A DNA stretch of 26,395 bases from UHGV virus genome UHGV-0085321; one strand, 5' to 3'. The stretch comes from a virus. This document shows positions 21,601-26,395 of this stretch, in pieces (position 1 is the stretch's first letter; every line of letters starts with the position of its first letter). The position numbers are program-made.

Positions 21601-24600
21601 GGTAGCTCGATGGTAACAACCTGTCGAATCCGAACTGCTTACCACTCCTGCATGCGATGTCTTCTGCCAGCATCGTGGCAAACTCGCTTGCCGTACCCCT
21701 GGTAGTTTTACGCCATTCCCTGAACTGTGTTCTGAATGCCGAAGCTGCGTTTTTCTTCCCGGCTTTCCGCATGCCTGCACACCAGAATATTTCCTCGAAT
21801 GCCTTGTCGGTTTCTTCGTGACGGTCAGGAGTTTTTTCACACTCCGTTCGGACATGTTCGAACATAATGTTTTTAGGTTCATTGACTGGTTCAAAAGAGT
21901 GATAGGTTCTGGGGGCAGCTCCTGCCCCACCCCCTAGGGCAGCTCCTGCCCCACCCCGGGCAGCTCCTGCCCCACCTGATTCTGGTTGGATTTGTTGTGC
22001 ATTATCCAGCGTCAGATAAAAAACGTTTGACTGGTTAAGCTCTCCTTTTCTTCTGAATTCCCTTTTCAAAAGCCCCATCTCTTCCAGTGCCCTAATGTGA
22101 CTTTTTACTGTCGATCTGCTCACCTCACACTGGTCAGCGACATGTTGATATGAAGGCCAGCATTCGCCATTATCATTGGCGTTATCGGCAAGTTTAATCA
22201 GAACCAGTTTTCTCAGTGGGTTGCCAACCTTTATATTCATGGCCTTAGCCATAAGATTCATGCTCATTTTGACTTCTCCGAAGTTTTGTACCTGTTAAGT
22301 ATTTCTCTCAGTGGCACAGCTATTGCTGGATTAACCCCCTGATAAAACTGGTCACGTAGCACATCTTTTCGGTGATTAACGCGTTTATTTTCCTGCGTTT
22401 TTCGCATATAATTACCTCGCTGGATGTTGTTAAAATTCCATCTGGATTTGTTCAGAACGCTCGGTCTTGCACACCGGGCGTTTTTTATTGGTGAGTCCAT
22501 CAAGCGCATACTTAAAAGCCCTGCTAATCGGACTGATGTCTGATGCCATTCCGAAAGCACACAGGACCGAAGCAATAAACCGCCAGTCCGTTCTGCTTAT
22601 CTTCGATTCATGACAGCCAATCATCTTTGCCAGACCGCGCTGGGTAATAGTTGACAGGTTGATGAGTAAATCTGTTTCTGCGCGATCAATTTCTCGCTGT
22701 GTTGGCTTGCTGTAACTTGCTTGTGTCATTTGTTAATTTTCCAATAGTGAATAGTTAGTTGAAAGGTATGCGTGGAAACGCATATGGCCTTGGTTGGTCA
22801 GATATTCTGGGATTCGCTTTTCAGCGACGTAGGACGAATGTCCGTTGTTACAAAGAGCGGGGTTACTTATGCTGCCAAAAGGTTCTTTTTGCTTATTTCA
22901 AGCATTTCGCTTGCTTGATATTTGCCACCAGAAATCTCTTCGATTTTTGATGCATATTTCGTTTTCCCAAAAAACTCAGTCTTAGGGAGGAAGCCGTTTT
23001 TGAGCCACTTATAGACAGCCCTTTCGCTAACTCCACAAGCCTTCGCAACTTCAGGGATGCCGACACCTTTAATCGGCTCATCAAGATTTTGCATGTGGAT
23101 ATCCTTTTTCGTACTTTCAGTACGCATTATGATTGAACTGAAAGTTTTTGCAAGTGCTTTAGTATCGTACTCATGGTTCAGAATGAAAAAGTGCGCAAAG
23201 AATTCGCCCAGCGGCTAGCGCAAGCCTGTAAAGAAGCTGGTCTTGATGAACATGGTAGGGGAATGGCCATAGCCCGCGCCCTTTCTCTTTCGTCCAAAGG
23301 CGTTAGCAAATGGTTTAATGCTGAGTCTTTACCACGTCAGGAAAAAATGAATGCGCTTGCGAAATTTCTAAACGTTGATGTTGTGTGGCTTCAGCACGGC
23401 ACTTCGTTAAATGGAGCGAATGATGAAGATACTCTTTCATTTGTTGGCAAATTAAAAAAAGGGTTAGTGCGCGTGGTTGGTGAGGCAATTCTTGGTGTTG
23501 ATGGTGCCATCGAGATGACCGAAGAGCGCGATGGGTGGCTCAAGATTTATAGCGATGATCCAGATGCCTTTGGTCTTCGTGTGAAAGGAGACAGCATGTG
23601 GCCCAGAATAAAATCAGGAGAATATGTACTCATTGAGCCTAACACCAAAGTATTCCCGGGTGATGAGGTGTTTGTCAGAACCGTTGAAGGACACAACATG
23701 ATCAAAGTTCTTGGCTATGACAGAGACGGAGAATACCAGTTTACAAGCATCAACCAGGACCATAGGCCAATAACGTTGCCTTATCATCAAGTAGCAAAGG
23801 TGGAGTATGTAGCTGGTATTCTGAAGCAATCTCGCCATCTGGATGACATCGAGGCAAGGGAGTGGCTGAAAAGTTCGTGACTTCATCGTCACATAGCTGA
23901 TAGCCAGTGGCCTGAAGAGACGTTTGGCTGATCGGCAAGGTGTTCTGGTCGGCGCATAGCTGATAACAATTGAGCAAGAATCTTCATCGAATTAGGGGAA
24001 TTTTCACTCCCCTCAGAACATAACATAGTAAATGGATTGAATTATGAAGAATGGTTTTTATGCGACTTACCGCAGCAAAAATAAAGGGAAAGATAAGCGC
24101 TCAATAAACCTGTCTGTTTTCCTTAATTCTCTGCTGGCTGATAATCATCACCTGCAGGTTGGCTCCAATTATTTGTATATTCATAAAATCGATGGAAAAA
24201 CTTTTCTCTTTACCAAAACAAATGACAAGAGTCTGGTTCAGAAGATAAATCGCTCTAAAGCTTCAGTTGAAGATATTAAGAACAGCCTCGCAGATGACGA
24301 ATCATTGGGATTCCCATCTTTTTTGTTTGTTGAAGGCGACACCATTGGTTTTGCCAGAACTGTTTTCGGGCCGACCACATCCGATCTGACAGATTTTTTA
24401 ATCGGGAAAGGAATGTCATTAAGCAGTGGAGAGCGCGTTCAGATAGAGCCACTGATGAGGGGAACCACCAAAGACGATGTTATGCATATGCATTTCATCG
24501 GCCGAACAACGGTGAAGGTAGAAGCCAAGCTACCTGTATTTGGCGATATATTAAAGGTCTTAGGGGCAACAGATATTGAAGGGGAGCTTTTTGACTCATT

Positions 24601-26395
24601 GGATATAGTCATTAAGCCAAAATTTAAAAGGGATATAAAAAAGGTTGCCAAGGATATTATTTTTAACCCGTCACCTCAATTTTCAGACATTAGCCTGCGG
24701 GCAAAAGATGAGGCCGGAGATATTTTAACAGAACATTATCTATCAGAAAAAGGCCATCTCTCAGCGCCTCTGAACAAGGTCACCAATGCTGAGATAGCTG
24801 AAGAGATGGCATATTGCTACGCAAGAATGAAAAGTGATATACTGGAATGTTTTAAAAGGCAGGTGGGCAAAGTTAAGGATTAATTATCAGGAGTAATTAT
24901 GCGGAACAGAATCATGCCTGGTGTTTACATAGTAATAATTCCTTACGTTATCGTAAGCATTTGCTATCTCCTTTTCCGCCACTACATTCCTGGTGTTTCT
25001 TTTTCAGCTCATAGAGATGGTCTTGGGGCGACATTGTCATCATATGCAGGAACCATGATTGCAATCCTGATTGCTGCCTTGACGTTTCTAATCGGAAGCA
25101 GAACGCGCCGACTGGCCAAGATTAGAGAGTATGGGTATATGACATCGGTAGTTATTGTCTATGCCCTTAGTTTTGTTGAGCTTGGAGCTTTGTTTTTCTG
25201 CGGGTTATTGCTTCTTTCCAGCATAAGCGGCTACATGATACCCACTATCGCCATCGGCATTGCCTCTGCATCGTTCATTCATATATGCATCCTTGTTTTC
25301 CAACTATATAATTTGACCAGAGAACAAGAATAACCCGGCCTCAGCGCCGGGTTTTCTTTGCCTCACAGACTTAACAACCGCACATGTGGTAAACCGCAAA
25401 CCAACACGCCAGCAAAATCATTCTTTCTCCACAACTGACCAGTCTTCAACCTTTACAAAAATAAATTTCCTTATATATCAAAATCATATTTCGTAGAGTT
25501 AATAAATCACAAAATTTCGTACCAATAGTTCTTGATAATTTCGAACTATTAGTTCATTATTATCGCCATCAGCAGGAAGCTGGAAGCCAAACGGAACAGA
25601 CTGGCAGGCTCTTTAAACAACGTCGAACACTCGACTACGTGGCTGAAAAGCCAGATCACCCAACCACATAAGCTGTGGGATGCAATGCCGAAGCAACCGT
25701 CTCAGGAGGGGCTTCGAGATTGCATCGCCAAAGTTTATTCGGGAGGAATCTATGTCCAGAAAAACAGAATTTAAAGGAACCGCAGCTTCTCGCCGTAGAG
25801 CTCGTCGTGCAAATCTGCAAAGTCAGGAGGCGATCAGCTCCGACAAGCTACACAGGCCAACCCCTTCACGAGTGGTCTTGCAATGCAAGCGCAAACCAGC
25901 AATGAGAGCAGAAGTGATAACTCTGACAACGTTGACCAGAAAATATGAAGGTTCAACTTGTCTTCCAAACGTAGCTCTTTACGCGGCAGGCTACCGGAAA
26001 TCAAAACAACTGACGGCGAGGTAATTATGGGTCAGGAAGAAAAATATGAGCTTAAAAAGCTCATTGGAGAAGACGCCATAGAAGAAATTGCAGCATTAAC
26101 AACAGCTATAAAGAATATTAGGTATGCGCTAAATACGCTTATCTCCTCATGCGACAAAAATAGCAGGGAATTTTTGATACTTGGCGCAGCTCTAGGAATA
26201 GTTGATGCGGCAACGCTTCACCTAATTACTCATGACGATATTCTTATTGAGCCGTATGAAACATTACTGCTTGTCAGGCAAAAAATGGCTGATGCCGCAG
26301 CAAATGGAGACCTTCAACTTTACATCGACTTAAGGAAAGTATTAAGGCGAATGGTCAGAACTGAAGGAGATATCCCCCTGACAAAGTAAGGGGGT

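Follow-up and report, generated by a model that had tools for sequence, protein, structure and literature searches.

A lambda rexAB cassette between a phi24B-type repressor and a non-lambda N gene, joined at short sequences shared by heteroimmune lambdoid phages

Results

A lambda rexAB block in a phi24B-type immunity region

We examined a 26,395-nucleotide stretch of viral DNA, UHGV-0085321 (the window), and in particular the interval between its repressor gene, cI, and its antiterminator gene, N, which holds the genes rexA and rexB. The locus is the immunity region of a lambda-like Escherichia coli prophage, of the phi24B/933W type in its cro, cI, left operator (OL) and N, and the rexA, rexB and terminator tImm of phage lambda lie in it as a module between the heteroimmune cI and the non-lambda OL and N (Table 1).

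Megablast aligned positions 23901..25366 with lambda 35792..37257 (J02459/NC_001416, minus strand) at 99.9% identity, and an ungapped comparison gave a single mismatch in 1466 bp, at 23904, which is C in the window and T in lambda. By the lambda annotation, this block comprises the last 31 nt of cI, the 112-nt cI-rexA spacer, rexA, rexB and the tImm hairpin. The two rex genes show zero nucleotide differences from lambda, and rexB starts 15 nt past the end of rexA. The identity ends sharply, at 23900/23901 and at 25366/25367, and the comparison with lambda found no nucleotide similarity upstream of 23901 or beyond 25366. The repressor gene, rexA, rexB and the terminator are all co-oriented on the plus strand, with no terminator predicted between cI and rexA. 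The locus thus has the composition of a RexAB system: a RexA-family protein, a RexB-family membrane protein encoded directly downstream, a place behind the repressor and closure by tImm. An earlier note on this DNA had proposed that a lambda-like spacer, rexA, rexB and a terminator follow a remnant of lambda cI, with non-lambda sequence on the far side, and the alignment bears out both points.

The repressor itself belongs elsewhere. By tblastn the resident CI protein is 100% identical to phi24B CI, whereas BLASTP aligned only 45 residues of the S24 core with lambda CI, at 36% identity. Window positions 22867..23927, which span cro, the right operator (OR), cI and the remnant, are 97.7% identical at the nucleotide level to the phi24B immunity record EF517298, in which cro, OR1-3 and cI are annotated. 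On the other side of the block, 25449..25556 is 92.6% identical to the phi24B stretch with OL2 and OL1, and the N protein of the window shares 35% identity with lambda N across 63 residues. CI, cro and the operator regions therefore place the immunity in the phi24B/933W type. The 45-residue match and the lack of lambda nucleotide similarity upstream of 23901 led us to reject a full-length lambda cI allele as the resident repressor gene, which the earlier note had also taken for non-lambda. The resident cI is in addition a mosaic in its own right. Three other sequences (L005, which is E. coli 23CRST013, L007 and L009) match its C-terminal domain from 23427 on at 97-99% identity, with another N-terminal domain, cro and operators, and their match to the window resumes only at 25567.

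Between the two parts lies the remnant of lambda cI. The stop codon of the resident cI is the TGA at 23878..23880, and 21 nt further on, in the same frame, the codons AGC CAG TGG CCT GAA GAG ACG TTT GGC TGA (23902..23931) read SQWPEETFG-stop. The C-terminus of lambda CI reads ...VIASQWPEETFG, so that the tail recognised in the earlier note is real, lying somewhat farther from the stop than the 15 nt or so given there. The frame would allow translational read-through of the cI TGA into the tail (...KSS*LHRHIADSQWPEETFG*), but we rejected it, as nothing else supports it and the repressor already has a C-terminal strand of its own.

Table 1 Features of the cro-N region of the window
Feature	Coordinates	Strand	Basis or remark
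cro-like helix-turn-helix gene, 75 amino acids	22867..23094	-	Pfam HTH_17 and weak P22_Cro match; annotated cro in EF517298
Resident repressor cI, 235 amino acids	23173..23880	+	Pfam HTH_3 and Peptidase_S24; LexA-like; phi24B type
CTTCA, sole native 3' flank of the resident cI	23881..23885	+	
Fossil A', R5-type repressor 3' end (...IIGRVFWSSHSW-stop), a third repressor family	23886..23904	+	
Fossil B, last 8 codons and stop of lambda-type cI (QWPEETFG-stop), left junction of the cargo slot	23905..23931	+	
Fossil A, second R5-type repressor 3' end, reads IGKVFWSAHS-stop	23931..23966	+	Translation
Lambda-identical block (one base differs), lambda 35792..37257	23901..25366	+	Megablast
rexA, 279 amino acids	24044..24883	+	Pfam PF15969, 1e-97; PADLOC RexA, 9e-110
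rexB, 144 amino acids	24899..25333	+	Pfam PF15968, 8.5e-92; PADLOC RexB, 8.6e-61
tImm-type intrinsic terminator, right junction of the cargo slot	25332..25366	+	Predicted hairpin 25332..25353, then T-run
OL/PL/leader, non-lambda, resident immunity type, about 385 bp	25367..25751	+	
N antiterminator, 90 amino acids, non-lambda allele	25752..26024	+	Pfam PF25694, 3.4e-32

Both junctions map to short intervals of three-way identity

The junctions could be placed precisely by means of a near-identical relative. Over 22697..23931 the IMG/VR contig L073 shares 99.7% identity with the window, and over 25327..26020 it shares 99.1%; in between, its slot holds a different cargo of 1.35 kb, encoding a DUF6978-like protein and a DUF1828/PDC-M24B-like protein. 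Two otherwise near-identical phages thus carry unrelated gene sets in the same interval, as befits a variable locus. In a three-way alignment at the left side, the window follows L073 as far as 23927 and lambda from 23901 on, and all three sequences are identical over the 23 bp of 23905..23927. At the right side, the three are identical over the 35 bp of 25332..25366, after which the window follows L073. Diagnostic bases flank both shared intervals, those on the left being 23904, of the resident type, and 23928, of the lambda type, which places the crossovers within 23905..23927 and 25332..25366.

The lambda cI tail is widespread in relatives that lack rexAB

We collected copies of the resident cI by scanning IMG/VR with a 23-mer from inside its coding region, which gave 121 copies among all the loci sampled. 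The stop codon was followed by CTTCA, the spacer and the cI tail in 107, phi24B included. Only two of these 107, the window and E. coli 23CRST013, had rexAB after the tail, where the others carried about 20 different cargo types. The same cI-tail arrangement is found in phi24B, where the tail precedes the DUF3024 ... stk genes, in Shiga toxin (Stx) 2a phages and in E. coli prophages. Those Stx2a phages that have the same cI match the window without a break to 23931 and continue with DUF3024 and NYN-domain genes and no rexAB. The 35 bp of tImm are likewise conserved 3' of nearly all the other cargo types.

Complete E. coli genomes gave the same picture. A 501-nt query spanning the joint was covered at one place, while hundreds of matches ran to positions between 23927 and 23962 and then diverged; five of the E. 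coli examples showed five other slot contents. A prophage of E. coli MS 196-1 is 97.5% identical to the window up to position 23932. The joint with rexAB was thus seen in 1 of 5426 E. coli genomes and in 0 of about 100 IMG/VR contigs with the resident cI tail, and an exact-pattern scan for the joint of resident cI tail, B (GGCTGA) and A found no match in genome_contigs or metagenome_contigs.

On this sequence distribution, the cI tail predates the acquisition of rexAB, since the same tail stands before some 20 other cargo types in relatives that lack rexAB. The tail is therefore better read as the left homology arm of an exchange than as its scar. The single fossil base that must derive from a lambda-like donor is 23928, which is C as in lambda and G in the relatives without rex, and the C at 23904 is of the resident type. 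The proposal of the earlier note, that rexAB moved as a module and left behind a fossil of the donor's repressor gene, holds for the movement of the module and fails for the origin of the fossil; the joint that it suggested looking for in relatives is common as regards the tail and limited to the window and 23CRST013 as regards rexAB.

We also scanned genome_contigs with a 20-mer from the lambda cI end. It matched assemblies labelled Limosilactobacillus, Shewanella, Desulfovibrio, Helicobacter, Kitasatospora and others (L220..L250), and among them are several contigs with a length of about 48.4-48.5 kb or very low coverage, which looks like contamination of public genomes with lambda DNA. As most of the matches in unrelated taxa appear to be such contamination, the scan says little about host range and we discarded it for that purpose.

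rexAB is nearly invariant behind different repressors

rexAB was present in 99 of the 5426 complete E. coli genomes, with at least 99% identity in each, and natural isolates often carry a rexAB 100% identical to that of the window. Three repressor families precede it: the lambda type R0 (six cases), the resident type R1 (two) and R4 (two). Among all carriers its identity is 99.3-99.9%, irrespective of the repressor, and this uniformity across repressors and genomes fits a recent spread as a cassette. Behind lambda-immunity cI genes, taken as an unbiased sample of 80, rexAB was found in 12, among 19 cargo types. Among the genes in the slot are defence systems, established or candidate, namely HigB-HigA-SecB (PD-Lambda-2/PD-T4-9 models), PDC-M63, PDC-M24 and RexAB.

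Two apparent parallels were set aside. Phage SfI has rexAB, but behind a full lambda cI. The record V00639 (L002), labelled 'Phage 434', is described in its own entry as 'rex gene of phage lambda' and was not accepted as rexAB behind the 434 repressor; V00639.1 is 99% identical to lambda rexAB, and its organism name is likely a taxonomic mislabel that could mislead searches.

Three repressor-tail fossils are stacked at the joint

Copies of the resident cI in other contexts share TGACTTCA with the window and diverge immediately after it, so that CTTCA alone is native 3' flank. What follows consists of repressor-gene ends, in the order cI / A' / B / A / rexA. Fossils A' and A resemble the end of a repressor gene of the R5 family in L140. 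A 27-mer across that gene end and the start of B matches the window at 23886 in 23 of 27 positions, and fossil A matches the gene end in 26 of 33, the next best site in the window scoring 19 in either comparison. Together A' and A account for an 11-bp direct repeat, CATAGCTGATA, at 23892 and 23955. Fossil A is also found in lambda itself, between cI and rexA, and four cargo types (C0, C3, C43 and C44) join at its end, CATAGCTG. The stacking A'-B-A suggests that one repressor gene after another was replaced upstream while the slot itself persisted.

For fossil B, a search of IMG/VR with the tail core, followed by clustering of all the sampled loci, gave the consensus CAGTGGCCTGAAGAGACGTTTGGnTrA. 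B is the coding end of the lambda-type cI (R0) and of the R4 family, which ends ...KVVKAQWPEETFG, and in at least six further repressor-tail families it lies past the stop codon as non-coding DNA, which makes at least eight in all. In five independent repressor families the left edges of these non-coding copies cluster at 24-27 nt. After B come about 40 cargo-start clusters, many of them common to several repressor families.

In the phi24B-type lineage the nucleotide diversity (pi) of B is 0.053, which is not significantly below the 0.069 at the synonymous sites of the adjacent cI (p = 0.27), and we rejected extra constraint on B in that lineage. Escherichia virus Lambda_2E9 (L273 3702..3760), a lambda-like phage whose CI is 98.7% identical in amino acids to the resident one, has an internal deletion in B (CAGT followed directly by ACGTTTGGATGG) and a diverged terminator; B is dispensable there. 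L097 is without B altogether. The diversity of B, together with these cases of partial deletion and absence, argues for a passive role, as a neutral fossil.

Partial second copies of B lie between cargo genes in L003 (2306..2703), L154 (7546..7652), L192 and L197. The DUF3024 gene of L003 is flanked by 18-bp direct repeats, GAAGA(G/A)ACGTTTGGGTGA, and in L154, L192 and L197 a hydrophobic 23-codon open reading frame (MREYLIVGVVTLLSVVAIVLMVA) lies between the two copies, its start overlapping the first TGA and its stop falling inside the second copy.

Other features of the window

The remainder of the window is a lambda-like late region with lysis genes, Q, a nin region and a toprim primase-helicase replication module. 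Directly 3' of N, at 26027..26389, is an open reading frame of 120 amino acids with no Pfam match; the region behind N is a frequent place of further accessory genes in lambdoid phages. The minus strand at 15322..15477 carries phage-borne genes for two tRNAs, Thr(tgt) and Asn(gtt), between an open reading frame for a Q-like antiterminator (15541..16059) and one for a holin-like protein (14989..15204). In Stx phages, tRNAs and stx sit at this Q-holin position, and the corresponding site of the window has no open reading frame of stx size. These tRNA genes were the only Rfam matches in the whole window, with none in the cI-rexAB-tImm region.

Discussion

The literature treats the interval between cI and N both as a mosaicism hotspot and as a variable locus for defence genes (Degnan 2007, as cited in PMC8585504, PMC7067206 and bioRxiv 10.1101/2024.02.24.581848). 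We conclude, with a probability of about 0.8, that the window is a rare recombinant in this locus, the product of a double crossover at short homologies, with a phi24B-immunity backbone and a lambda-immunity carrier of rexAB as the partners. The observations behind this conclusion are the sequence identities, the positions of the junctions, the presence of B and tImm in relatives that have other cargo, and the reassortment of cargo with repressors. In the proposed course of events, the recipient lineage would already have had B and tImm at the left and right edges of its slot. A lambda-immunity phage or prophage carrying rexAB would then have recombined with an L073-like backbone of phi24B immunity, with one crossover inside the 23 bp of identity in B and the other inside the 35 bp in tImm, and the previous cargo would have been replaced by rexAB. 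We infer that the exchange was a gain of rexAB. Rad52-type phage recombinases, Red-beta or RecT, are likely catalysts because proteins of this kind act on short, diverged homologies, on which they have been described to drive exchange (PMC3945230). In the new host genome rexAB would probably share the cI transcript from the maintenance promoter, as it does in lambda, and exclude superinfecting phages.

Several points weigh against this conclusion. The direction of the exchange rests on frequency alone, that is, on the two junction copies with rexAB among 107. An arm of 23 bp is at the low end of known recombination use, and no phage cross in the cited work relied on one so short. E. coli 23CRST013 combines nearly the same cI C-terminal domain with B and rexAB and differs in 3 of 11 spacer bases, which leaves room for one acquisition or two. 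Finally, homologous exchange accounts for the spread of the junctions but not for the way in which some 40 unrelated types of cargo were originally joined at exactly one nucleotide position.

The last point brings up the possibility that B is an active element, either a dedicated recombination site or a signal in the transcript from the maintenance promoter, and that it has been selected as a cassette junction. That the roughly 40 cargo types all begin directly after ACGTTTGG would then be accounted for, as would the recurrent left edge of the non-coding copies and the second, partial copies between cargo genes. We nevertheless consider such a role unlikely, as B is no more conserved than synonymous sites in the phi24B-type lineage, has suffered an internal deletion in Lambda_2E9 and is missing from L097, as no recombinase gene travels with the cassettes among the cargo open reading frames examined, and as Rfam finds nothing in the region. 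In its integron-like form, as a site-specific cassette system, the idea was rejected: the examined cargo genes include no recombinase, and the junctions consist of a repressor-gene tail and a terminator.

It could also be argued that rexAB is ancestral behind the resident cI and was later replaced by other cargo, the window preserving the old state. Four relatives (L006, L067, L257 and L265) keep B and then fossil A before unrelated cargo, and since fossil A sits upstream of rexA in lambda, it might there be the remnant of a rexAB cassette. Fossil A is not specific to rexAB, however, as it precedes C3, C43 and C44 behind other repressors, and rexAB itself is confined to 2 of the 107 copies. 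Moreover, over 1462 bp (23905..25366) the block has 0 differences from lambda, whereas in its flanks the divergence is 0.3-0.9% from the nearest relative and 3-7% within the lineage as a whole. An ancestral rexAB is for these reasons quite improbable.

A third explanation is the simplest form of the idea in the earlier note, in which one illegitimate event grafted a lambda fragment, consisting of the cI end, rexAB and tImm, behind a foreign cI and left the tail as its scar. The extent of the lambda-identical block, from inside the cI tail at 23901 to the end of tImm, is what such a graft would give, but phi24B, Stx phages and about 100 IMG/VR contigs without rexAB have the same tail at the same place behind the resident cI, base 23904 is of the resident and not the lambda type, and the right edge is a terminator common to other cargo types. 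We regard a single graft as very unlikely. Least probable of all is an assembly artefact, in which contaminant lambda reads were threaded into the resident prophage through the shared 23-bp and 35-bp repeats: the identity of 23905..25366 with reference lambda, the occurrence of lambda contigs in many unrelated assemblies and the position of both joints in short repeats common to lambda would fit, but the closed chromosome of E. coli 23CRST013 shows a joint of this kind together with a single-nucleotide polymorphism in rexA not found in lambda, a rexAB 100% identical to that of the window is common in natural isolates, and at the k-mer sizes in general use an assembler is unlikely to make two chimeric joins through repeats of only 23 and 35 bp.

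The short-homology double crossover may have a wider bearing. It is conceivable, and we put it forward tentatively, that B (about 27 bp) and A/A' (about 19-35 bp, from a repressor of the ...FWSxHS(W) type) serve as portable linkers which, together with tImm, allow heteroimmune lambdoid phages to draw on one pool of defence cassettes by short-homology recombination, and that the stacking A'-B-A records serial repressor replacement. The sharp and recurrent edges of the fossils give a hint that such junctions are favoured, not merely tolerated. We found no description of short repressor-tail fossils (A', B and A) as junctions shared across heteroimmune repressors in the searchable literature, Degnan 2007 lying outside that search, and a full-text literature search for WPEETFG returned no paper.

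Neither RexAB nor the variable locus behind cI is new, and the cassette itself is ordinary. The value of the case lies in its resolution: a near-isogenic pair pins the swap of a defence cassette to crossover intervals of 23 and 35 bp, and a piece of lambda-type cI, non-coding behind many unrelated repressors, provides a homology arm into a shared cargo pool. If this proves general, it would offer a testable mechanism for the movement of defence genes between heteroimmune prophages, those of Shiga-toxin phages included. The pattern B ... tImm is also a simple sequence handle for mining the cargo of lambdoid prophages.

Comparison with known systems sets the case in context. With phage lambda, the window shares rexA, rexB, the cI-rexA spacer and tImm base for base, as well as the gene order and orientation behind the repressor; it differs in its repressor, cro, operators and N, and lambda cI is reduced to its last 27-31 nt, which are non-coding. 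With the Stx phages phi24B/933W (cro-cI-[DUF3024..stk]-OL-N), it shares CI and the sequence from cro to 23927, with a related terminator and OL region, whereas the slot of phi24B holds a DUF3024 gene and the Stk kinase in place of rexAB. The lambdoid cI-N locus at large, as seen with BstA in BTP1 and with HigBAC, has the same position, co-orientation with cI, closing terminator and varying content including defence systems. The defence hotspots of P2-like phages and P4-like satellites (Rousset et al. 2022) are similar in being a fixed slot in a temperate phage, with conserved flanks and interchangeable anti-phage systems; they differ in phage family and in their flanks, the conserved arms of the kind seen in the window being only 23-35 bp long when the repressors are heterologous.

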